A DNA stretch of 64,000 nt from a bacterium (lineage in GTDB: Bacteria; Patescibacteriota; Saccharimonadia; CAILAD01; JADZBC01): the NCBI GenBank assembly GCA_020852295.1, contig JADZBC010000009.1, forward strand, positions 216,058 through 280,057, given 5' to 3'. Shown here in pieces: positions 3,328 to 63,854 of the stretch (position 1 is its first letter; every line of letters starts with the position of its first letter). Under the pieces are notes generated by a model. That model was not told the DNA's origin, made no database searches, and saw nothing but the letters and a program-made list of their open reading frames with translations. The translations under genes were made by a program, and so were the position numbers.

Positions 3328-3359
3328 CCAACTACAGCACTATCTAGTATAATTTCAGC

Positions 3360-5240
3360 ATGAATACATCTGAAATCCGTCAGAAATACTTAGATTACTT
3401 CGCGCAGCGAGGCCATGCTGTTGTGCCACGGTCCAACATTGTACCCAAAGAAGATCCCACGACACTTTTTACCGGCTCCGGCATGCAGCCAATGGTGCCG
3501 TATTTGCTTGGCGAAGATCATCCCAAGGGCAATCGCATCGTTGATAGCCAAACATGTTTTCGAGCCGAGGATATTGATGAAGTGGGTGACAATCGTCACA
3601 CGACTTTTTTTGAGATGCTCGGCAACTGGTCGCTCGGTGACTACTTCAAGAAAGAACAGCTACCATGGTTTTGGGAGTTTTTGACCAAAGAAGTTGGCTT
3701 GGATCCAAAGCGGCTGTACGTGACGACATTTATCGGCGATGAGAAAAATAGCATTCCAAAAGATACCGAGGCTGCTGAGATCTGGAAGGGATTGTTTAAG
3801 GAAGTCGGCATTGAGGCGCAAGTGGCCGAGATCGGCTCAGAGGAAGACGGCTACAAACGAGGCGTCAAAGACGGTGAGCGTATCTTCTACTATGATGCCA
3901 AAAAGAACTGGTGGAGCCGCGCAGGTGTGCCGGAGAATATGCCAGCAGGTGAACCGGGCGGCCCCGATAGCGAAGTTTTCTACGAGTTTACTGATGTTGA
4001 GCACGATCCAAAGTGGGGTGAGCATTGTCATCCAAACTGTGACTGTGGACGATTTTTAGAAATCGGCAATTCCGTCTTTATGCAGTACCAGAAGCAAGCT
4101 GACGGTAGCTTCAAAGAGCTGCCGCAGCTCAATGTGGACTTTGGTGGGGGCTTGGAGCGCATTGGTATGGCGGCTCTGGACACCAACGATATCTTTCGGC
4201 TCGACAATATGTGGCCGATTATCGAAAAGCTACAAGAGCTGAGCGGTAAGAAATATGAAGATCATGTTGAGGCCAAGCGGGTCATTGCCGATCACTTGCG
4301 AGCCGTAGTTTGGCTGGCCAACGATGGCGTGGTACCAAGCAACACCAAGCAGGGTTACGTCATGCGTCGCTTTGCCCGCCGTGCCATTCGTCGCGGGCTC
4401 GAGCTCGGTATTTACCAGGACATGTTCAAGCATGTGGCAGGCGTTGTGGTTGAGATCTACAGATCAGCTTATCCGGAAATGGTTGAGAATTTGGCTGAAA
4501 TCGTGCGTGTGCTCGATGCTGAAGAAAAGCTCTTTCGTCAGACACTCAAAAAGGGCCTCAAAGAATTCAACAAACTTGTTAATGATAAAAAAGCGCTCGA
4601 TGGTGAGACTATCTTCCGCCTCTATGACACCAATGGTTTTCCGACTGAGCTCACCATCGAAGAGGCTGAAGCTCGAGAGATCCCTGTCGAGAAAGACTGG
4701 GAGAAGGTTTTCGATCGTGAGATGAAGGCACAAAAAGAGCGCTCTCGCACCGCTGCCGCCGGTATGTTCAAGGGTGGTCTGCAGGACAACTCAGAGATCG
4801 TGACACGCTATCACACCGCGACTCACCTTATGTATCGTGCCCTCAAAAATATTCTTGGCGACCACGTCACGCAGCGTGGCAGCAACATCACTCACGAACG
4901 AGCTCGTTTCGACTTTTCGCATCATGAAAAAATGACACCTGAGCAGATCAAGGCAGTCGAAGATATGGTCAATGAAGCGATCGTCAAAGATTACCCAGTG
5001 AGCTTTATGGAGATGCCGACCGATAAGGCGTTTGAGAGTGGCGCTATCGGCGCTTTTGGCGACAAGTATGGTGACAAAGTGAAAGTGTACACGGTGGGTG
5101 ACCCTGACGGGGATTGGTATTCACGCGAGATATGTGGTGGTCCGCATGTCACGCACACAGGCGAGATTGGCAAGTTCAAGATTGTCAAAGAAGAGAGCTC
5201 GAGTGCCGGGGTGCGTCGCATCAAGGCCGTTATTGAGTGA
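3360..5240 (+). CDS. alaS: alanyl-tRNA synthetase, short form lacking the C-terminal C-Ala domain
   Basis: Class II core motifs are present (FTGSGMQP, FFEMLGNWSLGDYFK). The editing-domain motif HTATHLMYRALKNILGDHVTQRGS is present. Length is only 626 aa. A TATAAT sits 6 nt before the ATG, suggesting a leaderless transcript. Confidence 0.85.
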   Translation: MNTSEIRQKYLDYFAQRGHAVVPRSNIVPKEDPTTLFTGSGMQPMVPYLLGEDHPKGNRIVDSQTCFRAEDIDEVGDNRHTTFFEMLGNWSLGDYFKKEQLPWFWEFLTKEVGLDPKRLYVTTFIGDEKNSIPKDTEAAEIWKGLFKEVGIEAQVAEIGSEEDGYKRGVKDGERIFYYDAKKNWWSRAGVPENMPAGEPGGPDSEVFYEFTDVEHDPKWGEHCHPNCDCGRFLEIGNSVFMQYQKQADGSFKELPQLNVDFGGGLERIGMAALDTNDIFRLDNMWPIIEKLQELSGKKYEDHVEAKRVIADHLRAVVWLANDGVVPSNTKQGYVMRRFARRAIRRGLELGIYQDMFKHVAGVVVEIYRSAYPEMVENLAEIVRVLDAEEKLFRQTLKKGLKEFNKLVNDKKALDGETIFRLYDTNGFPTELTIEEAEAREIPVEKDWEKVFDREMKAQKERSRTAAAGMFKGGLQDNSEIVTRYHTATHLMYRALKNILGDHVTQRGSNITHERARFDFSHHEKMTPEQIKAVEDMVNEAIVKDYPVSFMEMPTDKAFESGAIGAFGDKYGDKVKVYTVGDPDGDWYSREICGGPHVTHTGEIGKFKIVKEESSSAGVRRIKAVIE

Positions 5241-5243
5241 CCG

Positions 5244-7253
5244 ATGGGTGCAGAAAAGCCGACCAACCAAGAAGCAGATCCAATGCATGGTCAGTCGGGC
5301 AACTTCTATGCTGACTTAGCAAAATCCGTCGAGCAACAGCGTTCGTTGCGAGAGCGCACCGCCGAGGCGTGGAAAAAGTATGCAGGCTATGGCCCTGACT
5401 ATCAGCGACGCAACGCCGAGCGTGCACAATCTGCTCGTGTAAAGATTGACCAGTATGGTGGCGATCAACTTACTATCATTGCCAGCATTAACACGAAAAA
5501 ATTCAATAGCGCTGGCGTTGAGGTAAAGGGCGATGCGGCTAAGCAGCCGGGTCTGACCGAAGGTGAGGCGACAGACCTGCATGACTACAATCCAGAGTCG
5601 CGTAATCACGCCGATATTGAGGCTGCTTACAATGACTATCTCGCACGGACGAAACCAGAGGAGCGACTTGTGATTTTCGAGGGTCGCGTGCGCCCCGACG
5701 AGTTCATCTCAGATCGCGCTACGGCAATTCGCCAAGCATCCGAATCCGGATTACTGCAGTACCTCGCGCGCCGCGATGGCGTGGAGGCTACTTCTGGTGA
5801 GCCAACTGATGAAGCAGTCGCACGGTACTGCTACGAACGCGGTGTCCAGCCCGAGGAACTTGCATTGGTATTGGTGATTCGTGGTCTGACTCACGATCTG
5901 ACGAAAGACCTACCCGACGACATTAGTATGGATATTTATGGTGAGGCGGTCGTTAATGGCCTAGAGGGTTTTGTTGATTATTCCAATGAACAGAAAGCGG
6001 AGATATCGAAAGATCCCGTTCGGATGGCAAAGCTTCAGCAGCAGGCAGTTGAGCTCGCCAAGCGTCAAAACGAAATACTTAGTAGTCTTGGCTTACCGCA
6101 ATTTGAGATTGATGAGCAGGCAAATACGGTTCGCTTTGCATCAGCCGAAGATCGTGCTGCCCTTGCCAAGGCGTGGGATCCGAGTAGTGAAGGGCGCTTG
6201 TCGGACATCCACACCATCATGACCGAAGCGCGCGACAAACATATTCTGGAGACTATCGTGAGTGCCACGGAAGACGGCAAGAAAGTCTTCATGGCCTACG
6301 GCGGCTCGCACGTTGTGAGCCTCGAACCTTGTCTAGATGAATTCTATGGCAAGGCGGAAGCTGCAAGTCAGCCGTCGTCTGATAAAGAATCAGAGCTTGT
6401 TGGTCTTATTGACTCGATCACTCCAGTCGCCGACAAATCAGCAATGCTGTCGGTGCTGAAAGATCCGCGACTTGTTATGTCAAAAGAGGGCAGGGAAGAA
6501 ATCAAAAAGCTAATAAATGTTGATGATCTTCAGCCTGAACAGGTGCGACGATTGGTTGATGCGGGTGCCAAGGAAAAATTGAATGAGATAATCAGTCTGC
6601 GCATGAAGGAGGCGCTCGAGCAGATCTTGCCGCTCGAAGCGCTGCGCAGTGACAATATCATTATCGATCAAAAAGAATCTGCCGATATCGATCCGATCGA
6701 AGAAATTCGCCAAATCGTCACCGACCCAGAACTTACTGCCAACCAGGGAGCAATGCAGAATGTCCTCATTTCTGAACGATCGCAGTACGTATTGAAAGTA
6801 TTGAAGAGTGATCTCCAGGATAATCCTTACGCAAGAGAAACGCTCGCTCATTACGATGAAGTACTAAAGGCATTTGGTCATGATTTTCTGCCTCGTCAAA
6901 TTGGCTTTGAGTTGAGAAATCCTCCGCTTGCCGGCACCTTGCAGGAAAAAGTAGCCATCGATGAATATCAAGTCCTCAATGCCGTGACAGATTTGGAGCA
7001 ATTTGATGATCAGACACAAAGCCCCCAGAACAAAGAAAAAGTAAAAGAGTTTATTGCTGGGTTTGATAGATTGGCTCAGCAGGGCCTTACACTTGATGTG
7101 TTGGGTGATAATGTTTTGTGGAAAAAAGGGACAAACGGTGAGCTGGAGATTCTCATTGTAGACACTGGTTCCTTTAGTAATGACTATGAGGGCAGTGCTC
7201 AAAGTGTACAAGAGGCCAATCGCTTAATAGATCGTTTGCGTCAATTGGTGTAG
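5244..7253 (+). CDS. large hypothetical cytoplasmic protein (669 aa)
   Basis: Long uninterrupted ORF with native-like codon usage. No recognisable motif. Starts 4 nt after the alaS stop. Confidence 0.5.
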   Translation: MGAEKPTNQEADPMHGQSGNFYADLAKSVEQQRSLRERTAEAWKKYAGYGPDYQRRNAERAQSARVKIDQYGGDQLTIIASINTKKFNSAGVEVKGDAAKQPGLTEGEATDLHDYNPESRNHADIEAAYNDYLARTKPEERLVIFEGRVRPDEFISDRATAIRQASESGLLQYLARRDGVEATSGEPTDEAVARYCYERGVQPEELALVLVIRGLTHDLTKDLPDDISMDIYGEAVVNGLEGFVDYSNEQKAEISKDPVRMAKLQQQAVELAKRQNEILSSLGLPQFEIDEQANTVRFASAEDRAALAKAWDPSSEGRLSDIHTIMTEARDKHILETIVSATEDGKKVFMAYGGSHVVSLEPCLDEFYGKAEAASQPSSDKESELVGLIDSITPVADKSAMLSVLKDPRLVMSKEGREEIKKLINVDDLQPEQVRRLVDAGAKEKLNEIISLRMKEALEQILPLEALRSDNIIIDQKESADIDPIEEIRQIVTDPELTANQGAMQNVLISERSQYVLKVLKSDLQDNPYARETLAHYDEVLKAFGHDFLPRQIGFELRNPPLAGTLQEKVAIDEYQVLNAVTDLEQFDDQTQSPQNKEKVKEFIAGFDRLAQQGLTLDVLGDNVLWKKGTNGELEILIVDTGSFSNDYEGSAQSVQEANRLIDRLRQLV

Positions 7254-7376: not shown

Positions 7377-8273
7377 TCACACCGTCGGGAAGCGCATCCC
7401 CAGCTTGCTGCCCAGCAGGTGCCGGAACGGCGGCTGCTGGTAGGGCTGCTGGAACTTGGCGACATGGTCGCGCATCATCTGGCGGTACTCCTCGGTGTGC
7501 AGACCGAGGCTTCGCGTTGCCAGAGGACGCGCCATCACGGTGATGACTCCCACGGCCCACATGAAGCAGGCCGGGTTGTCGATCGACCAGATGGCCAAGC
7601 TCCAGGCGCCAGCCATGGCGAGAAGTTGTGCGAAGAACTTCTTCTTGCCGTAGTGGTTGGCGCCGGGGACCTCTTGCCCGAGCTTCTGGCAGATGTGCTC
7701 CGTCGGCAGGCTGAGCTTGACCAGTGCCAGCTCCTCCTTGAGCGCCCACAGGGCAGTTCCGGTGAAGACCAGGCCGGCCACGGTGCCGTGGTACGACCAG
7801 GTCAGCCACCAGAACGCGCCCAGCAGGCTGATGAAGTACACCTTGTCGGCGAGCGGGTCGATGCCCTTGCCGATGTCGGTGACGCAGTTACGCCGCGCCT
7901 GATCCGGCGGGCGGTCCAGCATGTCTGGCCAGTTGGGGGCTCCCTTGGGCAGGTAGAGGTTGCGGGCAACCGGTCCGTCCAGCCCATCGAGCAGGGCGAG
8001 TCCGGCGGTCGCGACCAGCCACCAGATGGCAGCATTGGTCGATCCCTTCATGGTCGCGATCGCGAGCTGAGCCACCACGTAGGGCGACACCAGCATGCGG
8101 CCGATGCTCATGATGTTGGCGGACTGCCGCAGGATGGGGCGGAGTCGGGGGAAGCGCATCAGCGGCTGCATCCAGGAGAGGAAGAGCAGCTGAGCGATGT
8201 TGTCAAGGAGCTGGCGGAAGCCAGCCTCGATAGTTGCACCCAGTCCTTGCGGCTGGGAGTTGTCGATGGACAT
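7377..8273 (-). CDS. CDP-alcohol phosphatidyltransferase family protein (high-GC, foreign composition)
   Basis: Matches the signature D-G-x2-A-R...G-x3-D-x3-D (LDGPVAR...GKGIDPLADKVY). Multiple TM helices. About 65% GC with G/C-dominated third codon positions. The ATG at 8273 is preceded by a GAGGAGG RBS. The GTG at 8306 is an alternative start. Confidence 0.7.
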   Translation of the reverse strand: MSIDNSQPQGLGATIEAGFRQLLDNIAQLLFLSWMQPLMRFPRLRPILRQSANIMSIGRMLVSPYVVAQLAIATMKGSTNAAIWWLVATAGLALLDGLDGPVARNLYLPKGAPNWPDMLDRPPDQARRNCVTDIGKGIDPLADKVYFISLLGAFWWLTWSYHGTVAGLVFTGTALWALKEELALVKLSLPTEHICQKLGQEVPGANHYGKKKFFAQLLAMAGAWSLAIWSIDNPACFMWAVGVITVMARPLATRSLGLHTEEYRQMMRDHVAKFQQPYQQPPFRHLLGSKLGMRFPTV

Positions 8274-8309
8274 GGGGAAAGCCTCCTCGGCCGGGGATAG
8301 GTTCACATA

Positions 8310-30127: not shown

Positions 30128-31159
30128 ATGACGCCCACCCTCATGCGACGGGTCGGCGCATCTGCCGGCACGATCGTTGACGCACTCACTCATCCGCCCT
30201 ATGGCTGGGGTGAGCATCGCGACTTCGAGTCGCACGCCGATCATGGCTCGGTTGCCGTTACGTTTGAGGATCAGCCGGTGGTGGTGGAGTACTACCACTT
30301 CCCGGCCGGTCCGCATGCGCCGACGGTCTTCATCTGCAACGGCTTCACGGCCAATGCAGGGGTGTATGGCCCACTCGGCAAGGCTGTCTGGCACCACGAG
30401 CACAACGTTGTGCTATTGAGCCTGCCTGGTCACGGCGGCACTACGCTGCCAATGCATCGTCCACTTGGCTATGCCGACACTGCCGAGATCATGATCTCGG
30501 CGATCGAGGCAATCCGTCATGAGACTAGCATGGTCGGGGAGATCATCCTGGCCGGTCACTCTCACGGTGGCGGTGTAGCGATGGCGATCGCGGTGCGGCT
30601 GGGTCAGCAGGCCAATCGGCTGATCTTGCTGGCTTCGGTCGGTGGGCCCGAATGGAGCCGGATCACAACCCACATGCAGCAGAGCCTTGATGGCATTCGC
30701 GCTTGCCACCCCAATCTCGGACAGGTGAGTCGGGACCTACAAGTCCTGGCCATGCTGTTCGGAGAGGGGCTGCTGATGGTGCCACCACCGTGGGATGCCG
30801 TCAACGCCGGCAAGGAGCTGATCCTGCCGTTCGCCCGTGGCTTCCGCGGCTGGCGTCGTCCGCTTGAACTGTGGAGTGTGGCAATCGACACCATCGTCGG
30901 CGACGCTTACTCGCTCGAGAGCGATCTCGCGCAGGTGAAGCGACTGGGTATCCCAACGGCCTGTGTGGCGGGCAAGCTCGATGGCGTGATCAACCGCAAG
31001 GTCATCCGGCAACAGGCCAAGCTGGCGGGTGCTGGGGAGTTTCACTACACCACCACCCATGCCAGCTTCCTCGCACCGGAGGCACGTCGTCGTATCGCCG
31101 AGCTCATCACTCTGCCAGATGATTCGTTCAAGTTGGCCGTCGAGAAGCATCTTCGCTGA
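30128..31159 (+). CDS. alpha/beta hydrolase (high-GC island gene 2)
   Basis: G-x-S-x-G nucleophile elbow (AGHSHGG). A CTGGAGG RBS sits upstream. Confidence 0.65.
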   Translation: MTPTLMRRVGASAGTIVDALTHPPYGWGEHRDFESHADHGSVAVTFEDQPVVVEYYHFPAGPHAPTVFICNGFTANAGVYGPLGKAVWHHEHNVVLLSLPGHGGTTLPMHRPLGYADTAEIMISAIEAIRHETSMVGEIILAGHSHGGGVAMAIAVRLGQQANRLILLASVGGPEWSRITTHMQQSLDGIRACHPNLGQVSRDLQVLAMLFGEGLLMVPPPWDAVNAGKELILPFARGFRGWRRPLELWSVAIDTIVGDAYSLESDLAQVKRLGIPTACVAGKLDGVINRKVIRQQAKLAGAGEFHYTTTHASFLAPEARRRIAELITLPDDSFKLAVEKHLR

Positions 31160-35899: not shown

Positions 35900-35928
35900 T
35901 TGACAAATCCCCTATTTTATGCTAATAT
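35900..35928 (+). promoter_or_regulatory. consensus sigma70 promoter TTGACA-17-TAATAT (cassette copy 1)
   Basis: Perfect -35 and a near-consensus -10 with a 17-nt spacer. Duplicated at 36580-36608. Confidence 0.6.
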
Positions 35929-36034
35929 TTCTTCTAATTCCTACCTGTATGGATAGGTGGAGGAGCCCTCGGGTAACTCAGCGGCGTAGCTCTGGCGCCA
36001 CCCCAGAGCACTTGAAATGGAAGGAGGTGCTCGG
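35929..36034 (+). promoter_or_regulatory. structured roughly 105-nt leader, copy 1 (mutually exclusive hairpins GGCGU..GCGCC and GCTCTGG..CCAGAGC)
   Basis: Conserved against copy 2 at about 75% identity, with compensatory substitutions. Ends in an AAGGAGG RBS. Confidence 0.5.
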
Positions 36035-36463
36035 ATGAGCACCACCGAACTGAAGAAGGTCAACCTGCTCGAGTTCTTCGAGAAGGTGATCAACGGTCCC
36101 TCCCGCGAGGAGCTGTTCGACAGCCTGCGGCTGTTCAACCTCCGCCAGACGCTGGTCGAGTTCACGCTCGAGCAGAAGCGGCTGCGCGGATCGATGGTCA
36201 AGCCGACGGTCATCAAGGCCCGCGTCATGGGCATCCGTCCCGAGGACGGGTCGTCCAACCGCTGGCTGGTGGACCTGCTGGTCAACCAGATCGTCAACAG
36301 CGACACCGAGCCGGAGGACCCGTACGTCTCGATCTACTTCGACACCCAGGTGCGAGCAGGGCACATCATCGTCCCGCCGCAGCGCGAGGTCGTCGTGCGA
36401 GACGGACAGATCGTGCTGGACGGCACGGTGATCGGGAACCTCCCGGCCGCCACGTTCAGCTGA
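36035..36463 (+). CDS. hypothetical protein A (142 aa), high-GC cassette cargo, paralog of the 36713..37075 protein
   Basis: AAGGAGG RBS 8 nt upstream. Shares GPSREELFD(S/A)L and GI(R/S)xEDGSxNxW(L/I) blocks with protein B. G/C-rich third positions. Confidence 0.55.
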   Translation: MSTTELKKVNLLEFFEKVINGPSREELFDSLRLFNLRQTLVEFTLEQKRLRGSMVKPTVIKARVMGIRPEDGSSNRWLVDLLVNQIVNSDTEPEDPYVSIYFDTQVRAGHIIVPPQREVVVRDGQIVLDGTVIGNLPAATFS

Positions 36464-36469
36464 TCTTCG

Positions 36470-36577
36470 GCAAGCCAGGCCACTGGGGCCCGTGAAGATT
36501 CTACGCTTCAACGATCCGATACGTTAATTCGGGTCACCACCCAAGTTCATAACTCGTTTGTGAGTTTAGGTGGAAAG
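36470..36577 (+). repeat. 3-prime flank repeat copy 1 (about 108 nt, 97% identical to 37079-37184)
   Basis: Direct repeat containing an AACTC-gtttgt-GAGTT hairpin. Immediately followed by the next promoter. Confidence 0.7.
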
Positions 36578-36579
36578 TA

Positions 36580-36608
36580 TTGACAATATGTATTAAATAT
36601 GCTAATAT
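36580..36608 (+). promoter_or_regulatory. consensus sigma70 promoter TTGACA-17-TAATAT (cassette copy 2)
   Basis: Same hexamers and spacing as copy 1. Confidence 0.6.
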
Positions 36609-36712
36609 TTCTTCGATTCTTACCTGCATGGGTAAGTGGAGACGCCTTCGGGCATCTTAACGGCGCAGCTCTGGCGCCATCCCAGAGCACAAAACAGAAA
36701 GGGGTGTCTCGT
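36609..36712 (+). promoter_or_regulatory. structured leader, copy 2
   Basis: Hairpins CTTACC-tgcatg-GGTAAG and GCC-TTCG-GGC. Alternative pair GGCGC..GCGCC and GCTCTGG..CCAGAGC. RBS AAAGGGG. Confidence 0.5.
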
Positions 36713-37075
36713 ATGAGCACCGCCACCATCCACCCCGAAGACAAGTTCTTCGGACCCTCCCGCGAGGAGTTGTTCGACGCACTCGAACACGACCGAACCC
36801 TTCGCATGACACTGGAGAAGGACTGGTCGCAGACCAGCGATCCGCGGCAGATCGTCTTCCGGGTCATCGGCATCAGCCGCGAAGATGGTTCGAACAACTC
36901 CTGGATCCTGGAGATCGCCCTCGTGTCTGCCGTGGAGGAGCGGTTCTACCAGGGGGTCGAGGCATCGCTCAACTTCGGTGATCGCGGAGGTAAGAAGTTC
37001 GCCTCCGTCCTCGGTCGCAAGATCCGGGTGCACTACTCCTCAGCGAAGGCTGAAGGCCGATTCCTGGAGTTCTGA
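36713..37075 (+). CDS. hypothetical protein B (120 aa), paralog of protein A
   Basis: The ATG follows the leader. Conserved blocks are shared with protein A. High GC3. Confidence 0.55.
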   Translation: MSTATIHPEDKFFGPSREELFDALEHDRTLRMTLEKDWSQTSDPRQIVFRVIGISREDGSNNSWILEIALVSAVEERFYQGVEASLNFGDRGGKKFASVLGRKIRVHYSSAKAEGRFLEF

Positions 37076-37078
37076 GTG

Positions 37079-37184
37079 CAAGCCAGGCCACTGGGGCCGT
37101 GAAGCTTCTACGCTTCAACGATCCGATACGTTAATTCGGGTCACCACCCAAGTTCATAACTCGCTTGTGAGTTTAGGTGGAAAA
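37079..37184 (+). repeat. 3-prime flank repeat copy 2
   Basis: Near-identical to 36470-36577 (one indel, three substitutions). Confidence 0.7.
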
Positions 37185-37194
37185 TACTAAAACG

Positions 37195-37237
37195 GTACAA
37201 GCCCCCGACAAGATTGCTCTCGTCGGGGGCTTTGTAC
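37195..37237 (-). terminator. strong hairpin GTACAAAGCCCCCGAC-12 nt-GTCGGGGGCTTGTAC with a U-rich tail on the minus strand
   Basis: A 15-16-bp stem abutting the stop of the minus-strand ligase gene. May act bidirectionally. Confidence 0.6.
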
Positions 37238-38508
37238 TACACCAACACCGTGCCGGTCAGGATGGCATCCTTCGCGCCGTGCACGGCCTTGTTCGGCCGA
37301 GCCGTGATGGCGATGTCCTCCACGCCGGTTCGGCTGAAGTAGGCGGTGAGGCGCAGCTGCCATTCACCCGGCGGATCGAGCTGACCGCGCTCGTCGAATC
37401 GCTGCCAGGCGAACCGGCGGTTGGTCACCTCGCGCTGGAGGATGTTGGCGCCCCGCTGCCGACTGGCCGCCAGCAGCGCCTCGCCGAACTCCGGCTCGTC
37501 GCCGAAGTAGATGCCGCGCATTCCCGAAGCCACTGACTGCTTGAGCACCAGACCGTGGTGGTTCGACAGCTGGGGCGTTGTCCAGTCGCGGCCGATGATG
37601 TGGGTCATCGGCAAGTGCGACCGCACGACACGCAGAGCCGATTCACTGATCTGACTGCGCACCAGCGCTTCGATGGCCGGGTCGCCCACCGCGTTGCTCA
37701 CCACCCCGAGCAGCGACTTGCTCGCCAAGAAGTGCTTGGGGGAGATGAGGCACTGCAGCGTGCCACTCTTCAAGCCGGCGCGGAGCCAGTCGATGAGCGG
37801 CTTGTTGTAGTTCATCGGCGGCATGTCGATGAGGGTCGGCGGCAGCACCTCGCCCGTGCGGGCGTGACGCATGACGCCGGAGTGCACATCGACCTGCAGC
37901 TCGTTGATCACAGCCATCTCGATGCCCAGGAGCTTGAGCTCGCGAGCGATGATCGCAAACTCCGGCTCGTAGAAGCGCTGCGTGTCACCGAACAGGAACG
38001 TCACCGCGTCAATGCGGCGGCGCCGGCACTCAGCGGCGATGTAAGCAGCGACACCCGGGAGCTGTGCGGCCTCGGGCCGGAGCACCTGGCAGATGCGTCG
38101 ACCGATGATGGAGTAGCCCCAGCTGCGGGGGTTCGTCGCATCGATCTCGGCCAACCAGATGTGGCCCTGCTCGTCGATGAGCAGGTCGCACTTGCGCAGG
38201 ATGGGGAGGTTGCGCGGCCGGTTGTTGGGCAGCTTGTAGGGCGTGCCCTGCTTGAGGGTGTTGCCGATGCGTCCGTACGGCAGCATCTTGCCACACAGAT
38301 CCGGCTGCTCGCTGATGGCGACGATCCGGCTGATACCACCCAGCACCTCGTCGATGGCGGGGGCCAGCTGGTTGAGCTGGTTGAGCTGGTCGCTACCCAG
38401 TTCGTATACGTCCGGTGAGAGCTGGAAAGCGTGCGACCGCTCCTGCTCGCCGTTCCAAATGCCCGTCTCACGGACAGTTTCTTGCAACTCCGCAAACATG
38501 GTGTCCAT
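37237..38508 (-). CDS. glutathionylspermidine-synthase-like (YgiC/YjfC family) ATP-grasp amidoligase, high-GC
   Basis: Motif order matches the GspS-like family. The N-terminal block LIDEQGHIWLAEIDATNP matches YgiC LDLAWDG..LLENNADTP. The C-terminal lysine block GLVLKQSVASGMRGIYF matches YgiC YVVKPIFSREGANVSI. Start taken at the second ATG, which has an AAAGGA RBS. The longest ORF starts at 38541. Confidence 0.6.
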   Translation of the reverse strand: MDTMFAELQETVRETGIWNGEQERSHAFQLSPDVYELGSDQLNQLNQLAPAIDEVLGGISRIVAISEQPDLCGKMLPYGRIGNTLKQGTPYKLPNNRPRNLPILRKCDLLIDEQGHIWLAEIDATNPRSWGYSIIGRRICQVLRPEAAQLPGVAAYIAAECRRRRIDAVTFLFGDTQRFYEPEFAIIARELKLLGIEMAVINELQVDVHSGVMRHARTGEVLPPTLIDMPPMNYNKPLIDWLRAGLKSGTLQCLISPKHFLASKSLLGVVSNAVGDPAIEALVRSQISESALRVVRSHLPMTHIIGRDWTTPQLSNHHGLVLKQSVASGMRGIYFGDEPEFGEALLAASRQRGANILQREVTNRRFAWQRFDERGQLDPPGEWQLRLTAYFSRTGVEDIAITARPNKAVHGAKDAILTGTVLV

Positions 38509-38575
38509 GGCGGGTCCTTTCGGGTTGGGGTGCGTGTGCACCGATGTGAAGGTGTAGTCCTGCTGAATCGCAGGC

Positions 38576-38607
38576 TACCGGCAGATACTGCAGTGAACTA
38601 CCGGCAA
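38576..38607. promoter_or_regulatory. direct repeat CTACCGGCA(G/A) x2 with 22-bp periodicity upstream of the ligase gene
   Basis: Two 10-mers two helical turns apart, in the 103-nt gap between the HAD stop and the ligase start. Confidence 0.35.
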
Positions 38608-38611
38608 ACTG

Positions 38612-39049
38612 TTATTCAGTGATGAGTTTTTGAAATTGCGAAAGAGTGGTGATGGTATGCTCGGGCGTAAAGCCAACTGGTTCTTCGTCGGCGAAGCGAC
38701 CCTGGCGATACCAGACGGTTGGCCAGCCAGCTTTATGGCCGAACGCGATCTCGCCAAGCGCGCGATCGCCAATGACAAACGATTTGCTTAAGTCGGTGTC
38801 ATACTTTTGAGCGAGTTGGCGAAATACTTTTTGCGACTTGGTATCCATCAAAATAATTTCGGCGAAGTACTCTGCAATACCGAGCTGCTCAATCAGTGCC
38901 TGGCGTGACGGTGCAGCCATGGCAAGCAGGATGAGTGTATAGCCTTGATCGCGTGCGGTATCAAGTAGCGATTGTGCGCCGTCGATGAGCTGATTTGTGT
39001 CTGGATCGTAAAGTGTTCGATTGAAGTCGAAGATGATGAGTTGGTTCAT
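38612..39049 (-). CDS. HAD-family hydrolase
   Basis: Motif I IIFDFNRTLYD and C-terminal motif VIGDRALGE. Native composition. AGGAA RBS. Confidence 0.65.
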   Translation of the reverse strand: MNQLIIFDFNRTLYDPDTNQLIDGAQSLLDTARDQGYTLILLAMAAPSRQALIEQLGIAEYFAEIILMDTKSQKVFRQLAQKYDTDLSKSFVIGDRALGEIAFGHKAGWPTVWYRQGRFADEEPVGFTPEHTITTLSQFQKLITE

Positions 39050-39282
39050 GATTGTTCCTTTCGTTAGACTAAAAAACCTCTTGGAGGCCAAGAGGTCGTC
39101 GGTTTTTTAGATTTTGCGTATAGCTAAAATGACCTCTCGGCTGAGTGGCTGTTCCAAAAGTGATAGTGAAACTGGTTGGCTGTTTGCTTCATGTTGCGAC
39201 AAATACTAACAATCATTTTCGGTTATGTCAACAGTCAATGTATTTGTGCTAGAAGCCGAGTAGTTGTTATGCTTTATATAGC

Positions 39283-41150: not shown

Positions 41151-41507
41151 TTAAGCTTGATTACCTAACCACTGCTTCAGCGCAACGGCTTGATTATTCT
41201 CTGTGTCACGGGCCGAGTACACGAGCGTCACCGCTTGCTTATCTGCCGATTGGCGAAGAAGATCCTTGGCTGCGTTGGATTTGTCCAACTCTACAAAATA
41301 CTTAGCCTTAAATTCCTCAAACCTAGCAGGGTCATGGTTGAACCATTTACGCAGCTCATTACTAGGGGCGATGTCCTTACACCATTCATCGATTTGCAGA
41401 TCTTCTTTCTTGATGCCGCGCGGCCACAATCTATCCACGAGTATCCTATACCCGTCATCGTCGGCAGGCTTTTCGTAGGCTCGCTTAATACGGATGTTCA
41501 TACTCAT
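41151..41507 (-). CDS. DUF488-family protein
   Basis: RAYEKPADDDGYRILVDRLWPRG...KDIAPSNELRKWFNHDP matches the DUF488 pattern. AGGAG RBS. The ORF-track start at 41708 is an upstream extension. Confidence 0.65.
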   Translation of the reverse strand: MSMNIRIKRAYEKPADDDGYRILVDRLWPRGIKKEDLQIDEWCKDIAPSNELRKWFNHDPARFEEFKAKYFVELDKSNAAKDLLRQSADKQAVTLVYSARDTENNQAVALKQWLGNQA

Positions 41508-41708
41508 TATTATACTCCTAGTTGGGTATAGGTAGTCTTGTGTCCGATCCTTAGATATTAGGAAAATGGCGTATTTTAGATGCCTAATCTTGCAAAAAAC
41601 TAAAAATACTTTTTCAAAAACACTAGCCTTACACAATATGTAGCGTATATAATACTTAAGCAAACACCACATACGGTGTAGTACCTCGACACGAGAAAGG
41701 CAAGTCAA

Positions 41709-44363
41709 ATGACTTCAACGAACCAGGTAAAGCTGGGAATAGGACGCCACTTCACGGAGGCGTCGGTTCACCCCTACGATATGGTGGAGTGGGAGCTGCG
41801 TGATAGTCGGCTCATGAACCACGCTACCGGTGAGGTAGCGTTTGAGCAGGCCGGCGTGGAAGTTCCGCTAGTCTGGTCGCAGAGCGCTACAAACATCGTG
41901 GCGCAGAAGTACCTGCGTGGCTCACTTGGCTCTGATGGGCGAGAGAGCAGCTTGCGCGATCTGATCGATCGAGTCGTCAACACCATCACCGCATGGGGGG
42001 ACGCCGATGGTTATTTTGCCGACGATGATGAGCGCGAAGCCTTTAGGGCTGAGCTGAGCTTCATTCTGTTGACACAGCGAGCAGCGTTTAACTCACCGGT
42101 GTGGTTCAATATCGGTGTGGCTGATTCGCCGCAGCAGGCTAGCGCTTGTTTCATTTTGTCGGTGGAGGATTCGATGGAGTCCATCAAGGATTGGTGGGCT
42201 CAGGAGGCGATCATCTTTCAGGGAGGATCTGGCGCCGGCGCGAATCTCTCGCATCTGCGCGGTTCGAGCGAGCCGATTGGCGGCAGCGTCAATACTAGCT
42301 CCGGGCCGTTGGCATTCATGCAAGCGGCAGATGCGGCAGCTAACGCTATCAAGTCCGGTGGCAAGACGCGCCGAGCAGCCAAAATGGTCATCCTCGACGT
42401 CGATCATCCAGACATCGTCGAGTTTGTCGCAGCCAAGAAAGCGGCCGAAGACATGGCGCGCGCTTTGAGCGTGTCGGGCTTTGACATGAGTTTTGATTCG
42501 ACGCACGCTAGCTGGATTCCGTATCAGAACGCCAACAACAGCGTTCGGGTGACCGATGAGTTCATGCAAGCGGTGGAGGAGAACGAGACTTGGCGGCTGA
42601 AGGCTCGGCTGGATGGTCACGTGGTGGCTGAGATGCCGGCTCGCGAGCTGATGTGCATGATCGCCGAGGCCGCTTGGGCTTGTGGTGATCCTGGATTGCA
42701 GTTTGACACCACTGCCAACAAGTGGCATACCTGCCCGAGCGCTGGGCGCATCAATGGGTCAAATCCTTGCAGCGAGTACATGCATCTGGACGATTCCAGC
42801 TGCAATCTCGCCAGCTTGAACCTGCTGAAGTTTCTCGATGAGGATGGTGGCTTCGAGCTCGATGATTTTCTGCAAACTGTCACGGTGATCTTTATGGCTC
42901 AGGATATCCTGACCGGTCATGCTGACTACCCGACGGAGAAGATCGCCGAGACCAGTCGTCGTTTTCGGCAGCTGGGCATCGGCTACACCAACTTGGGCGC
43001 GCTTCTGATGGCGACCGGTCTACCCTACGACTCGGAAGAGGGTCGTTATCTGGCGGCGACGATCACGGCGCTGATGACCGGTCAGAGCTATCTGGCTAGC
43101 GCGCAGATGGCAGAGCGATTGGGAGCCTTTGAGGGCTTTGAGGCTGATCGAGGTTCGGTCCTCAAGGTGTTGCGTAAGCACACCAAGGCTCTCAAGGGCG
43201 TTGGTAAGTGTCAGCTGCCTTTGGCTGACAGGCTTTATGCGCAGGCAATGGTCATCTGGGAGGATGTCAACTGTTTGGCTCAGAGGCACGGCATTCGTAA
43301 CGCTCAGGCTTCGGTGCTGGCTCCGACTGGTACCATTAGCTTTATGATGGACTGCGACACCACTGGCATCGAGCCGGATTACGATCTGGTCAAGACCAAG
43401 CTTTTGGTCGGTGGTGGCAGCATGAAGATAGTCAATCAGACCATCGAGCGGGCCTTGCGGAATCTGAAGTATTCAGAGGCTGACATCGTGGGTATCATCG
43501 ATTACATCGAGGAGAACTCGACGGCGGTCGGCGCGCCCAAGCTGGAAGGCCACCACTTGCCGGTATTCGCAACTGCCAATGGCGAAAACGCGATTTCGGC
43601 AGAGGGTCATTTGCTCATGATGGCGGCAGTGCAGCCGTTCCTCTCGGGCGCGATTTCCAAGACGGTGAACTTGCCTAACGATGCGACGGTGGAGGATATC
43701 GAAGCCGCGTACGTGGAGGCATGGCATCTGGGCCTGAAGGCTGTCGCGGTGTACCGCGATGGTTGCAAGGTCGCGCAGCCACTGTCGTCGACGGTGCAGC
43801 TCGCATCAATAGAAGCCGTCGGTAAGCGTGAGCTGCCCAAGCAGCGCGAGTCTCGGACATACGAGTTTAGCGTTGCTGGCACCAAGTGCTTCGTGCATGT
43901 CGGTCTTTTTGCCGACGGTAGCCCGGGTGAGATTTTCTTTCATGTCACCAAGCAGGGCTCGACGATGTCAGGCATCATGGACAACTTCGGTATAGCCCTC
44001 TCGCTGGGTTTGCAGCAGGGAGTACCGCTGGAGTCGTTCGTGAAGCGCTACGTCGGCACGAAGTTTGAGCCACATGGCATGACGGATGATCCGGAGTTGA
44101 GGATCGCCAACAGTATTCTCGACTACGTTTTCCGGCGCTTGGCTCTGGACTTTCTGTCGCCCGAGGCGCGGACAGCGCTGAACATCTTCTCGAGCGCTGA
44201 GAGGACTGAGGCGCTGGAGGCAGAGGTGTCGGGTGTGTCGACTGCTAAGGCGACGGTCGCCGATCCAAACGCGCCGATGTGCCAGTCCTGTGGCTTGCAG
44301 ATGCGTCGAGCTGGCAGTTGCTACGTTTGCGAGCAGTGCGGCACTACCAGTGGCTGTAGCTGA
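41709..44363 (+). CDS. nrdJ: class II (adenosylcobalamin-dependent) ribonucleotide reductase
   Basis: Monomeric class II core with the active-site NPCSE block. C-terminal Cys4 zinc ribbon CQSCG...CEQCG. About 57% GC, slightly above native. Confidence 0.9.
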   Translation: MTSTNQVKLGIGRHFTEASVHPYDMVEWELRDSRLMNHATGEVAFEQAGVEVPLVWSQSATNIVAQKYLRGSLGSDGRESSLRDLIDRVVNTITAWGDADGYFADDDEREAFRAELSFILLTQRAAFNSPVWFNIGVADSPQQASACFILSVEDSMESIKDWWAQEAIIFQGGSGAGANLSHLRGSSEPIGGSVNTSSGPLAFMQAADAAANAIKSGGKTRRAAKMVILDVDHPDIVEFVAAKKAAEDMARALSVSGFDMSFDSTHASWIPYQNANNSVRVTDEFMQAVEENETWRLKARLDGHVVAEMPARELMCMIAEAAWACGDPGLQFDTTANKWHTCPSAGRINGSNPCSEYMHLDDSSCNLASLNLLKFLDEDGGFELDDFLQTVTVIFMAQDILTGHADYPTEKIAETSRRFRQLGIGYTNLGALLMATGLPYDSEEGRYLAATITALMTGQSYLASAQMAERLGAFEGFEADRGSVLKVLRKHTKALKGVGKCQLPLADRLYAQAMVIWEDVNCLAQRHGIRNAQASVLAPTGTISFMMDCDTTGIEPDYDLVKTKLLVGGGSMKIVNQTIERALRNLKYSEADIVGIIDYIEENSTAVGAPKLEGHHLPVFATANGENAISAEGHLLMMAAVQPFLSGAISKTVNLPNDATVEDIEAAYVEAWHLGLKAVAVYRDGCKVAQPLSSTVQLASIEAVGKRELPKQRESRTYEFSVAGTKCFVHVGLFADGSPGEIFFHVTKQGSTMSGIMDNFGIALSLGLQQGVPLESFVKRYVGTKFEPHGMTDDPELRIANSILDYVFRRLALDFLSPEARTALNIFSSAERTEALEAEVSGVSTAKATVADPNAPMCQSCGLQMRRAGSCYVCEQCGTTSGCS

Positions 44364-54894: not shown

Positions 54895-55269
54895 ATGCCC
54901 GAAAGCACCCAGACAATCCTCGCGGTTGTCAGCGAAGTCCATGCCCGGCACGCTCCGCACACCTTCGACGCCATGGGACTGTTCATTCTCGACAGTGATC
55001 AGCCCCACGACGCGTCGTATCGCGGTTTGCGTCCGCTCGGCTTCCGCTGTTCGCACTTCGATGAGCAGACAGGTCGAGTCTGGTTCGGTGACGTCGATGA
55101 GGCACACCGTGTCTCGGCGCCGTCCATCCGCGACCTGGAAGCCGGCCAACAGTTGGTCCTTATCCAGGAGCAGGCTGGTGAGTTGCTGTGGGGTCTGCCC
55201 ACGCCCACTCTCAAGGCGGCCCTCGACTACATGTTCGATGGGTTCATGCAGCTGGCCTACGGTGGCTGA
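54895..55269 (+). CDS. hypothetical protein P2 (124 aa), high-GC cassette cargo
   Basis: Perfect AAGGAGG RBS 7 nt upstream. GC3-rich. Unrelated to P1 and P3. Confidence 0.55.
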   Translation: MPESTQTILAVVSEVHARHAPHTFDAMGLFILDSDQPHDASYRGLRPLGFRCSHFDEQTGRVWFGDVDEAHRVSAPSIRDLEAGQQLVLIQEQAGELLWGLPTPTLKAALDYMFDGFMQLAYGG

Positions 55270-55288
55270 CACCTCGGCTGGAACGGGA

Positions 55289-55358
55289 CCTGAGGCGCGC
55301 AAGCGCCTCGGGAGTCCCCCTGAGCTATCTTATGCAAAGATGGTTGAGGGGGATTTTT
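55289..55358 (+). terminator. conserved 3-prime element 2: CCTGAGGCGC-GCAA-GCGCCTCGGG (GNRA loop), then TCCCCC-(TGAGC..GGTTGA)-GGGGGA, then T5
   Basis: The second hairpin is identical to element 1. The first hairpin is structurally equivalent with sequence covariation. Confidence 0.6.
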
Positions 55359-55362
55359 AGTA

Positions 55363-55449
55363 TTGAAAAAATTGTGTAATCATGCTATAGTATCAAAACT
55401 CTCTCAGCCGAGAGGGTATCCGTTCCCCGACAGATTAGATTGGACCCCG
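55363..55449 (+). promoter_or_regulatory. cassette 3 promoter (TTGAAA-17-TATAGT) and leader with CTCTC-tcagcc-GAGAG hairpin plus CCGTTCCCCGACA box
   Basis: The -35 starts right after the U-tract of element 2. The box lies at 55420-55432. Confidence 0.5.
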
Positions 55450-55926
55450 ATGACCCAACGCAATTCATCCTCCCGCCGTCCACGAGGTGATCAGCCTCGT
55501 CGTGCTGGAGGTACTCCCTCCCGTGCCGATGCCCGAACGGGCGGCACACGTACGGGCCAACCGCCGCGTCGCAAGATGTCGGCTACCACCCATCGAGCCA
55601 TCGTCAAGGTGCTCGACCCCCGCAACGAGGGTCAGTACTTCGGCTTCGTTCGACTGCTCGACGAGCAGGGTGTGCAGACCGGCGAGGAGGTCTACTTCCG
55701 CTGGAATGACGGCAGCCCCGTCGAGTACAAGCCGGGCGGCCACGTCTGGTTCGTCGACCCGAACAACAAGGGCGACCACAAGCGCAAGCCGGTGGTCGAG
55801 CGACCCATGCCGGGCGACCACATCGTCTGCCGTGTCGTGGTCACGCATCGCGGCAAGAAGGTCCTGATGTGGGGCTTCTACGACCGCGACCTCCACGAGG
55901 CAGCGATTCGTCAGGGTTGCGACTGA
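55450..55926 (+). CDS. hypothetical protein P3 (158 aa): Arg-rich disordered N-terminus plus OB-fold (cold-shock-like) domains
   Basis: AIVKVLDPRNEGQYFGFVRLLDEQG...EVYFRWNDG resembles the CSD signature GxVKWFNxxKGFGFI...DVFVHxS. High GC3. Confidence 0.5.
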   Translation: MTQRNSSSRRPRGDQPRRAGGTPSRADARTGGTRTGQPPRRKMSATTHRAIVKVLDPRNEGQYFGFVRLLDEQGVQTGEEVYFRWNDGSPVEYKPGGHVWFVDPNNKGDHKRKPVVERPMPGDHIVCRVVVTHRGKKVLMWGFYDRDLHEAAIRQGCD

Positions 55927-55943
55927 TCCAAGTCGGGGCAACG

Positions 55944-56005
55944 CCCGGAGCGCGCAAGCGTTCCGGGTAGCCCCTGAGCCAATAGTCATGTTGGTTGAGG
56001 GGCTA
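55944..56005 (+). terminator. conserved 3-prime element 3: CCCGGAGCGC-GCAA-GCGTTCCGGG, then TAGCCCC-(TGAGC..GGTTGA)-GGGGCTA
   Basis: Same two-hairpin topology as elements 1 and 2, with compensatory stem changes. No U-tract. Confidence 0.5.
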
Positions 56006-63143: not shown

Positions 63144-63854
63144 ATGGAAGCGAAGAAGCCATCTGCCCGCGAGCTCGTCTCACTGGCAGTTCTCGTGACG
63201 GTCTTCACTTGGTTGAGCCGTCGTCGTGTTGGACTCGGCCTCAGCCGAGCACGGAGTGGCTGGAAGGCCAACCCGCTGCGCATGGTTGCGCAACTGGTCA
63301 CCTCGGTGATCATCGGCCAGGGCATCTTCTGGCTGGTGGGTTACGACCAGCTTGGTATCAGCATGAACCCGACTCATCAGATGGGTCGACTCAAGCAATT
63401 GGCCGAGCGATTGGCTGAGAAGGTGCCGGATGACCCGCTCTGGGCCTGGCTCCTCAAGGCGCTTGAAATCGCCACCGACTTCGGGAAGTGCCCGATCGAG
63501 GGAGCGGTTTACCTGCGTCACGGCATCGTCAGCGATGCCGTAGCGGCTGGTGTGACGCAGCCATGGTGGAGTGTGGTCGAGGGAGCTGAGAAGTTCAACG
63601 GGGCGCTGATGCATCCCGAGCGGGTCAACACCCGTGAGCAGATCGCGCTCTCGATCGGCTGCACACTCGGCAGCCTATTCCGCTACCTGTTGGCCGCGAT
63701 CGTGTGGTTCGGTGGCGGTGTCATCAATCGCCAGCTGACCGATCGACTCGAACGCGGCTATCGCGAGCTGGACCCCGTGATCATCACTGGTTCTGGTGTG
63801 GTGGTGGCAGTCATCATCGGTCACGGCCTTCGGGTCGGCAACCAGACGAACTGA
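63144..63854 (+). CDS. hypothetical polytopic membrane protein, high-GC island gene
   Basis: GGGGAGG RBS. GC3-rich. Four or more TM helices. Followed by a complex GC hairpin. Confidence 0.55.
   Translation: MEAKKPSARELVSLAVLVTVFTWLSRRRVGLGLSRARSGWKANPLRMVAQLVTSVIIGQGIFWLVGYDQLGISMNPTHQMGRLKQLAERLAEKVPDDPLWAWLLKALEIATDFGKCPIEGAVYLRHGIVSDAVAAGVTQPWWSVVEGAEKFNGALMHPERVNTREQIALSIGCTLGSLFRYLLAAIVWFGGGVINRQLTDRLERGYRELDPVIITGSGVVVAVIIGHGLRVGNQTN

Follow-up and report, generated by a model that had tools for sequence, protein, structure and literature searches.

A predicted ATP-grasp ligase family of Saccharibacteria with a HAD-like operon partner and putative leader-peptide control

Circularly permuted ATP-grasp ligases include E. 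coli YgiC and YjfC, the synthetase domain of GspS (Pfam GSP_synth), the eukaryotic glutathione and homoglutathione synthetases, and the fungal enzyme Cp1B of the E-64 pathway. In E. coli, the peptide-spermidine ligases YgiC and YjfC adjoin the small DUF1190 proteins YgiB and YjfM. Both enzymes are described as joining amines to the C-terminus of peptides (PMID 36745518, cited in PMC12568646). Cp1B is a standalone small-molecule amide-forming enzyme, and its authors name homoglutathione synthetase and YgiC/YjfC as its nearest structural relatives (PMC12568646). Here, we describe a gene for a protein of the same structural group, carried on the minus strand of a 64,000-nucleotide (nt) stretch of a Saccharimonadia genome (assembly GCA_020852295.1, contig JADZBC010000009.1, positions 216,058 to 280,057), hereafter the window. 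Taken together, the evidence makes it probable that this protein represents an undescribed family of permuted ATP-grasp carboxylate-amine ligases, which has a HAD-like operon partner and is under attenuator control, and that two small paralogous genes next to it are separate from this system.

The locus differs from each of the described systems. Beside the ligase, neither the window nor any homolog locus carries a DUF1190 gene, and compared with YgiC, YjfC and GspS the ligase is distinguished by a phosphatase-fold partner and by a preceding putative leader-peptide attenuator. Cp1B is fungal, belongs to a secondary-metabolite cluster and uses an epoxysuccinate substrate; unlike the ligase, it has no phosphatase partner or attenuator. 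Eukaryotic glutathione synthetases share the permuted topology, in which the Mg-site block lies N-terminal to the ATP-binding Lys and the glycine-rich lid, but the ligase has no sequence-level match to them, is ~50 residues shorter and lacks a glutathione pathway context.

Sequence family and predicted fold of the ligase

The original prediction had placed a high-GC gene at this position of the minus strand. The open reading frame (ORF) is present, with a GC content of 0.652 and a GC content at third codon positions (GC3) of 0.877, versus ~0.5 in neighbouring genes. The frame spans 37237..38541 from a GTG codon. The in-frame ATG at 38508, which gives a protein of 423 amino acids (aa), is the likely start, since the ribosome-binding site (RBS) GAAAGGA located 5' of it is kept across ligase homologs and the database entry, "hypothetical protein IT414_02190 [bacterium]", likewise has 423 aa. 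The antisense ORF on the plus strand (37555-38418) was rejected as the true gene: its GC3 is 0.635 versus 0.877 in the minus frame, and both the family conservation and the confident fold belong to the minus strand.

Sequence models did not recognise the protein. The Pfam scan gave no match to GSP_synth, CP_ATPgrasp_1 or CP_ATPgrasp_2 even at E ≤ 10; its sole match was ATPgrasp_YheCD, sub-threshold and limited to 19 residues over the E-x-D block. Scans of NCBIfam, PHROGs and PADLOC yielded nothing usable, and sequence searches of the PDB returned chance-level matches only, whether the query was the protein alone or a profile of 12 or 107 sequences. Ten diverse members of the family likewise had no GSP_synth match at E ≤ 1 and no Pfam matches. 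Close homologs comprised 12 full-length proteins with 40-100% identity (among 5.8 billion clusters), while a profile search of 1.84 billion representatives at 50% identity recovered 307 clusters at E ≤ 1e-3, of which 139 had E ≤ 1e-30. Family members are mostly 400-450 aa long. Their named source genomes are metagenome-assembled genomes (MAGs) of Saccharibacteria, and the remaining sources are metagenome contigs. A full-text literature search returned no paper on this ligase family in Saccharibacteria.

Some members depart from the common architecture. Proteins P0110 and P0112 (619 and 601 aa), for instance, are extended at the N-terminus by ~170-190 residues that match nothing in Pfam. Protein P0013, encoded on a 2096-nt contig outside the window, has 414 aa; its first ~150 residues are homologous to the ligase and its C-terminal part is that of a serine recombinase (Pfam Recombinase plus Zn-ribbon). 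The probable origin is a ligase gene broken by a mobile element, or an assembly chimera.

An AlphaFold (AF2) model built from 12 sequences was confident (predicted local distance difference test score, pLDDT, 91; predicted template modelling score, pTM, 0.91). Foldseek comparison of this model with the PDB gave 55 matches at E ≤ 1e-3, and the best 50 of the 55 were all circularly permuted ATP-grasp ligases. Template modelling scores (TM) were mostly 0.5-0.63 when normalised to the query and reached 0.69, normalised to the target, for YgiC with ADP. The best matches were glutathione or homoglutathione synthetases of yeast, human, plant and nematode origin (among them 1m0w, 2hgs and 3kal), with E down to 9.5e-17 and TM 0.60-0.63. 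Cp1B followed (PDB 9cjn, E 5.7e-14, TM 0.60), and YjfC, YgiC, Mfla_0391, GspS and trypanothione synthetase were matched at E 1e-11 to 1e-8. The resemblance to Mfla_0391 (PDB 3n6x, E 1.6e-11) is at fold level only.

Profile-profile comparison agreed with the structural search. The 107-sequence ligase profile aligned with YgiC, YjfC and the GspS synthetase domain over 283 columns (hhalign probability 91.2%, E 1e-6), and with YgiC alone at a probability of 65.6%. In the alignment, D108/E121/D123 of the ligase fall on D102/E115/N117 of the YgiC Mg-site block, and K264 falls on the NK motif; K323 and the SSGMKG loop match YgiC K302 and its loop, G329 matches G309, and Q358 matches Q336. At block level, KVDL..G..IAEID..N of the ligase corresponds to RxDxxxDG..KLLExNADTP, PPKPFLGSKxLL to the SNKALLPLLW motif, VLKxxVSSGMKGV to YVVKPIxSREGxNV, and ILQ to IYQ. 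The motif order is thus shared with YgiC, YjfC and GspS (xxD...ExN-A-D-T-P versus KxD...ExD-A-T-N-P in the ligase), and the NK/SK motif, the hhK motif with its Gly-rich loop and the hinge Gln align as well; sequence identity is ~10-13%, and the protein scores below any Pfam threshold.

The order of motifs stated in the original prediction, with an ExN-type block N-terminal and a lysine block C-terminal, was confirmed: the blocks are LIDEQGHIWLAEIDATNP at residues 110-127 and LVLKQSVASGMRGIYF at residues 320-335, and the invariant residues tied to them are D108, E121, D123 and N126, and K323 and G329, respectively. The ATP-binding Lys, the Gly-rich loop and the hinge Gln are all C-terminal to the Mg2+-site block (D...E-x-N/D), whose E-x-N/D part reads EIEGDKTHAFGY in a distant clade of the family. 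Across the 107 diverse members, Y180, K264, K323 and Q358 are invariant, and D108, E121, G329, R386, H410 and G411 are kept in at least 90%.

The protein is thus predicted to adopt the circularly permuted ATP-grasp fold. The earlier call of a GspS-like ATP-grasp enzyme holds at superfamily level, given the Foldseek matches, the hhalign result and the pairing of the same blocks. Membership in the YgiC/YjfC family does not hold: in the absence of any match to the Pfam GSP_synth or CP_ATPgrasp models, the ligase is a new family within a known structural class.

Conserved operon and leader region

Genomic context was compared across 12 distinct homolog loci (three from Saccharibacteria MAGs, one metagenome contig and eight from exact-protein look-ups). 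The ligase gene is the second in a conserved two-gene operon, behind a gene for a HAD-like protein. In the window and in 10 of the 12 loci (L001-L007, L009, L017 and L019), this gene sits directly upstream of the ligase gene in the same orientation; it encodes 138-150 aa and is separated from the ligase gene by roughly 75-170 nt. Searched by tblastn with the window copy, the HAD-like genes showed 28-59% identity, extending to a locus whose ligase is 25% identical. At L002, the pair has the same flanks as in the window (trmD, KH, rpsP and SMC genes).

Three Pfam models recognised the HAD-like protein above their cut-offs, namely Hydrolase_like (E 1.7e-9), Hydrolase (E 1.2e-6) and HAD_2 (E 3.8e-6), and the HAD-IIIA and YqeG models matched it weakly. 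Its closest solved relatives are PH1655 (PDB profile match, E 2.2e-12) and YfnB. Since the PDB alignments start only after the cap region of these type-IA HADs, the protein is cap-less. It shares the Rossmannoid core with cap-less (C0) HADs (HisB N-terminal domain, GmhB, MDP-1 and YqeG) and with type-IA YjjG, YfnB and PH1655, and differs from the latter, its closest sequence relatives, by deletion of the cap. Residues D8, N10, R11, T12, K71, D95 and E100 are invariant in nine orthologs; the Asp nucleophile, the Lys of motif III and the acidic pair of motif IV are all kept.

The remaining two loci, L018 and L020, belong to the distant clade and lack the HAD-like gene. A His_Phos_1 protein of 176-178 aa, SixA-sized and with intact RHGE and GHSG motifs, is instead encoded 1-6 nt after the ligase gene. 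This looks like non-orthologous displacement by another phosphatase fold. Because a second, unrelated phosphatase fold occupies the partner position, the role of the partner would involve a phosphoryl group; this is the main argument for such a role. Cap-less HADs and SixA-sized histidine phosphatases often act on macromolecules, and so a protein or peptide target for the ligase system is conceivable. The operons of the distant clade (L018:2247-5467 and L020:5001-8156) carry, on one strand and with very short gaps, a leader ORF, the ligase gene and genes for His_Phos_1, histidyl-tRNA synthetase (HisRS) and an EamA transporter, which suggests that HisRS is co-regulated with the ligase there.

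The gap between the HAD-like and ligase genes contains no promoter-like site, and its stem-loop has no U-tract, so the two genes are probably co-transcribed. This stem-loop is located just past the HAD stop codon and has equivalents in L001, L003-L007 and L017; RNAalifold across eight loci found compensatory changes in 8 of 9 pairs. Its loop is a conserved stretch of 12-13 nt containing the palindrome CUGCAG. It could serve in RNA processing or stability, or be bound by a protein.

Upstream of the HAD-like gene, the minus strand carries in order a promoter, a short leader ORF, a terminator hairpin with a T-run and the HAD RBS. This layout is common to the window, L017, L001, L007, L002, L003, L004, L005 and L009, and it also precedes the ligase gene at L020 of the distant clade; a leader ORF followed by a hairpin and U-tract was found at 10 loci. 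The -10 hexamer ends 6-10 nt 5' of the leader ATG in 11/11 loci. Such spacing makes it probable that translation of the leader ORF uses an mRNA that is leaderless or nearly so.

The final leader codons include a segment that resembles the 3' arm of the terminator and is able to pair with the 5' arm. The resulting antiterminator duplex of the window has an energy of -18.3 kcal/mol, which was reached by 0/300 shuffles. Across loci, the duplex between leader end and terminator 5' arm averaged -13.1 kcal/mol within a locus versus -9.4 between loci (permutation p = 5e-4), and its energy was reached by ≤ ~2% of shuffles in 8/10 loci. The pairing core sequence shifts in step in L002, L009 and L020. 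At L004, the core sits just after the leader stop codon, which marks it as an RNA-level rather than a peptide-level element.

Leader peptides were enriched in Trp (4.2-fold), His (4.6-fold), Phe (2.5-fold), Tyr (2.1-fold) and Thr (2.4-fold). Together, Trp, His, Tyr and Phe made up 28.5% of leader residues versus 9.4% in the background (nominal P 6e-16, the sequences being related). Each leader has at most one Trp and 1-3 His, mixed with Phe, Tyr and Thr; one Trp is present in 10/11 leaders, within a [YH][HF][FA]W[FYH] patch. In the HAD-type clade, the peptide follows the pattern M-N-x-P-T-T...[YH][HF][FA]W[FYH] and is kept along much of its length. This pattern fits the sensing of charged-tRNA shortage as well as a nascent-peptide arrest motif.

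The arrangement resembles the ribosome-mediated attenuators of amino-acid operons and aminoacyl-tRNA synthetase (aaRS) genes (trpL, hisL, pheL and pheM type) in having a short ORF with over-represented codons, a terminator before the first structural gene and, as the alternative fold, an antiterminator that would be masked by a ribosome positioned at the stop codon. In L018 and L020, the same leader ORF precedes a HisRS-containing operon, with a terminator only in L020. The leader described here differs in its mixed Trp/His/Phe/Tyr/Thr codons with a single Trp, its seemingly leaderless ORF, and its control of genes that form no recognisable amino-acid biosynthesis pathway. Peptide-level conservation around [YH][HF][FA]W[FYH] also fits arrest peptides like TnaC or SpeFL. 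Rfam has no family for the leader, the HAD-ligase intergenic hairpin or the two RNA elements of the small genes treated below; a His_leader match at 37194-37316 (E = 7) was discarded as chance. A full-text literature search found no paper describing leader-peptide attenuation in Patescibacteria.

Other genes near the operon offer hints that are weak, since housekeeping genes are densely packed in these genomes. HisRS shares an operon with the ligase in L018 and L020, a class-II aaRS gene is divergent to the operon in L004, a class-Ib aaRS gene lies upstream in L009, a prephenate dehydratase gene lies downstream in L019 and a Trp-repressor-family gene is present in L006. A link to queuosine-tRNA was considered (TGT or QueA nearby in L001, L007 and L004; His and Tyr codons in the leader) and rejected, as Trp, Phe and Thr do not fit.

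The mechanism that we propose builds on the predicted fold, the remote homology, the kept ATP-grasp motifs, the operon partner and the co-varying leader architecture shown above; the catalytic activity of the ligase, the sense in which regulation acts, the signal and the part played by the phosphatase are inferred. It would run as follows. Transcription would start at the sigma-70 promoter, and the leader ORF of ~22 codons would be translated from the leaderless or nearly leaderless mRNA. A ribosome reaching the stop codon would cover the antiterminator segment, upon which the terminator would form and transcription would halt. A ribosome stalled in the aromatic/His cluster, through charged-tRNA shortage or nascent-peptide arrest, would allow the antiterminator to form and the HAD-like and ligase genes to be transcribed. 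The ligase would then activate a carboxylate as an acyl-phosphate with ATP/Mg2+ and couple the acyl group to an amine, and the phosphatase-fold partner would act on a phosphorylated substrate, product or protein of the same pathway.

A more specific proposal is tentative, and we regard it as possible rather than likely. The pair of HAD-like or His_Phos_1 protein and ligase may form a lineage-specific pathway, apparently of Patescibacteria, that is switched on by a leaderless attenuation or arrest peptide upon aromatic/His shortage or by an aromatic ligand. It might make a novel amide-linked metabolite or modify a peptide or protein, possibly the leader peptide, and the DxNxT HAD, instead of being an ordinary sugar-phosphate phosphatase, might serve as a phospho-carrier or dephosphorylate macromolecules.

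Small-protein cassettes and other features of the window

Features of the locus and their coordinates
Feature	Position	Strand	Basis or details
sigma-70-type promoter, TTGACA-17 nt-TAGTAT, TG extension	39203..39231	-	motif
Leader ORF, 22 codons + stop, MKQTANQFHYHFWNSHSAERSF, Trp codon 39154-39156	39124..39192	-	comparable ORF in 11 loci
Antiterminator half GCCGAGAGGTCA, overlaps last leader codons	39130..39141	-	complementary to terminator 5' arm
Putative intrinsic terminator GACCTCTTGG-cct-CCAAGAGGTT + T-run	39071..39097	-	between leader ORF and HAD RBS
Cap-less HAD-like gene, 145 aa, first in operon, motif I D-x-N-R-T	38612..39049	-	Pfam, conserved synteny
Stem-loop in HAD-ligase gap, loop UUCACUGCAGUAU	38576..38606	-	RNAalifold across 8 loci
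Second hairpin in HAD-ligase gap	~38559-38574	-	present in closest relatives
Ligase gene, 423 aa	37237..38508	-	ORF call, homologs, AF2 model, Foldseek, hhalign
Very stable hairpin between convergent small gene 2 and ligase	37194..37238	.	folding versus shuffles
Small-protein cassette 1	35900..36579	+	promoter 35900-35928, 5' untranslated region (UTR) 35936-36011, coding sequence (CDS) 36035-36463, 3' element 36470-36579
Small-protein cassette 2	36580..37186	+	promoter 36580-36608, 5' UTR 36615-36690, CDS 36713-37075, 3' element 37078-37186
5' UTR RNA elsewhere	L012:5906-5979; L013:~3345-3420; L014:~5905-5985		ahead of the small-protein gene

As originally predicted, the two small genes are paralogs (41% identity over 63 aa, E 6e-11), and both converge on the ligase gene. 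Each has its own promoter (TTGACA-17-TAATAT). The family they belong to gave 39 matches and has the signature GPSREELFDxLRLFNE...EDGSGxSW...YY...RxG; a structural model was mostly beta (pLDDT 87) and had no significant structural match in the PDB or BFVD. Homologs were studied in loci L012-L015, which represent three distinct loci, as L014 and L015 carry the same protein. At L012:6001-6425, residues 1-120 of the ortholog lie in one frame and residues 120-142 in another, which points to a frameshift or sequencing error.

The 5' UTR of the small genes (~76 nt) is predicted to form three hairpins and a pseudoknot between the linker GGCG and the hairpin-3 loop CGCC. This RNA was found ahead of every GPSREELFD-type small gene examined and is conserved in L012-L015. 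Standard pairs occupied 98.3% of counted cells, and 16/24 pairs had compensatory changes; this pairing was reached by 0/500 shuffles, and slid controls gave 33-47%. A covariance model matched only the small-gene copies in 221 kb of window and loci. The element is a candidate for a new cis-regulatory RNA or riboswitch. The 3' element of each cassette (~110 nt) is 96-100% identical between the two copies despite 41% protein identity, and 86-88% of 58 nt is kept in L012:6479-6536. It folds into 2-3 hairpins (z -2.0 and -3.5) with no U-tract. A reading as integron attC was rejected, the R''/R' consensus being absent on inspection.

The hairpin between the second small gene and the ligase gene had been proposed to terminate transcription in both directions. 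It is real and very stable (-31.0 kcal/mol for the plus RNA and -34.4 for the minus RNA; z -7.7 and -6.0), and 0/200 shuffles were as stable. U-tracts are weak on both sides, and a role as a putative bidirectional terminator, which follows from this structure by inference, is plausible.

Along the window, GC content jumps at 36-39 kb, and GC3 is 0.88, 0.94 and 0.81 in the ligase gene and the two small genes. The HAD-like gene has a native GC3 of 0.54, and the ribosomal protein S16 gene is not GC3-rich. Both the ligase and the small-protein families have GC3 far above that of neighbouring genes in many genomes (window, L002, L004, L006, L012, L013, L014, L017 and L019); examples are L006, where GC3 is 0.81 in the ligase gene versus 0.42 in the HAD gene, and L013, with 0.78 in the small gene versus 0.28-0.53 in its neighbours. 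High GC common to both families at unlinked loci means that their shared high GC in the window is not evidence of a common island.

Further isolated genes of high GC or GC3 occur in this genome of ~50% GC, at 7377-8306 (-), 30128-31159 (+), 63144-63854 (+) and ~55000-56000. Among them are genes for a CDP-alcohol phosphatidyltransferase (GC3 0.87) and an alpha/beta hydrolase (0.73), and an ORF with no assignment (0.75). The genome may be a mosaic. Two genes past the operon, at 41151-41510 (-), a DUF488 protein is encoded that matches the model of the inactive N3 subclade (E 2e-39); the adjacent gene, at 41709-44363, is that of a ribonucleotide reductase.

Alternative readings and biological meaning

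Several observations weigh against the view that a new ligase family works with a phosphatase-fold partner under attenuator control. The class of the ligase is assigned from a predicted structure and a 91% profile-profile match, with no recognition by a sequence hidden Markov model; the Mg-site Asn of the ExN motif, present in YgiC and YjfC, is Asp or Glu in the ligase family, and its Gly-rich loop lacks the Glu found in YgiC. The census of 12 distinct loci stands against 307 representative clusters in the family. The HAD-like partner differs from C0 and type-IA phosphatases in motif I, which reads D8-x-N10-R11-T12 in 9/9 orthologs and not DxDx[TV], so that Asn replaces the general acid/base Asp, and in motif II, where the Ser/Thr is not conserved; the protein may therefore be a poor phosphatase, or no phosphatase at all. 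Since L018 and L020 are syntenic with each other, the displacement by His_Phos_1 counts as one evolutionary event. Concerning regulation, L018 has a leader ORF with no clear terminator, and the leaders show no long run of one amino acid, unlike those of classical attenuators. Modelling a ribosome stalled at the Trp codon switched the minimum-energy fold to the antiterminator in 2 of 9 loci (the window and L005), and the other loci kept the terminator. The attenuator model consequently relies on co-transcriptional kinetics, as in classical attenuators.

The original prediction treated the ligase and the two GPSREELFD-type paralogs as one acquired module, in which the ligase modifies or works with the small proteins. 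The three genes are indeed adjacent and convergent in the window, share the putative terminator hairpin and all have very high GC3, and the peptide C-terminal ligation described for YgiC and YjfC lends the idea some appeal; as the prediction stated, these E. coli genes do sit beside those of small proteins. However, tblastn found no ligase in the small-protein loci L012-L015 and no small-protein homolog in the ligase loci then retrieved, nor beside the ligase in loci added later, so that across 12 ligase loci and three small-protein loci the association is confined to the window. At L012, the small gene follows SMC-rpsP-KH-trmD as it does in the window, and the next 1.2 kb contains no ligase gene. 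The small genes also have their own promoters and a dedicated 5' UTR RNA found only ahead of them, and the GC3 elevation is family-wide in both families. The paralogs are independent neighbouring cassettes rather than partners of the ligase, and the module is close to refuted; we consider it very improbable. The related idea of a foreign island, in which the ligase belongs to a recently transferred high-GC segment whose surroundings are not conserved and the hairpins upstream are generic terminators that serve adjacent genes, could draw on the GC jump and on the other scattered high-GC3 genes. It is weakened by the L002 synteny, by the native GC3 of the HAD-like gene, by the family-wide GC3 elevation, and by the retention of the HAD-ligase order, the intergenic hairpin and the leader with terminator across loci at 25-69% ligase identity, and appears quite unlikely.

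Two other readings concern the product of the ligase. The leader ORF could encode a precursor peptide that the ligase modifies at its C-terminus or a side chain with the help of the phosphatase-fold protein, in a cluster resembling those of ribosomally synthesised and post-translationally modified peptides (RiPPs). The leader peptide is conserved over much of its length in the HAD-type clade, relatives of the ligase act on peptide carboxylates, and a leaky terminator after the precursor gene is common in RiPP clusters. This explanation is nevertheless unlikely, as the C-terminus of the peptide is not conserved, the peptides have 15-30 residues with no leader/core division, and the homolog loci have no conserved protease, transporter or leader-recognition gene nearby; moreover, the conserved AGAGGU core acts at RNA level, as its position with respect to the stop codon varies, being after it in L004, and it co-varies with the terminator arm. 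That the ligase is a functional eukaryotic-type glutathione or homoglutathione synthetase would agree with its best Foldseek matches (yeast, human and plant enzymes, E 1e-16 to 1e-13, TM ~0.6). Sequence identity to these enzymes is 10-16%, however, with no match to Pfam GSH_synth_ATP, and PDB sequence searches do not reach them. No gamma-glutamylcysteine ligase gene was found in any neighbourhood examined, a phosphatase-fold partner has no place in glutathione synthesis, and a thiol pathway would not be expected to be controlled through a leader rich in Trp, His, Phe and Tyr, which makes such a function highly improbable. We therefore retain as probable the view of a separate ligase family with a HAD-like partner under attenuator control.

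Saccharibacteria and their relatives are very small symbionts with tiny genomes, in which much of the gene content has no assigned function. The novelty of the present system is that of a new family in a known structural class, with a new operon design. An enzyme class is hereby proposed for a family that counts 307 or more clusters (50% identity) and has no Pfam or NCBIfam model, its real operon partner is defined, and a plausible pairing of enzyme and substrate is corrected. A separate RNA motif supported by covariation was found ahead of an orphan small-protein family. The conserved regulatory leader, finally, provides a testable handle on the signal sensed by these bacteria.

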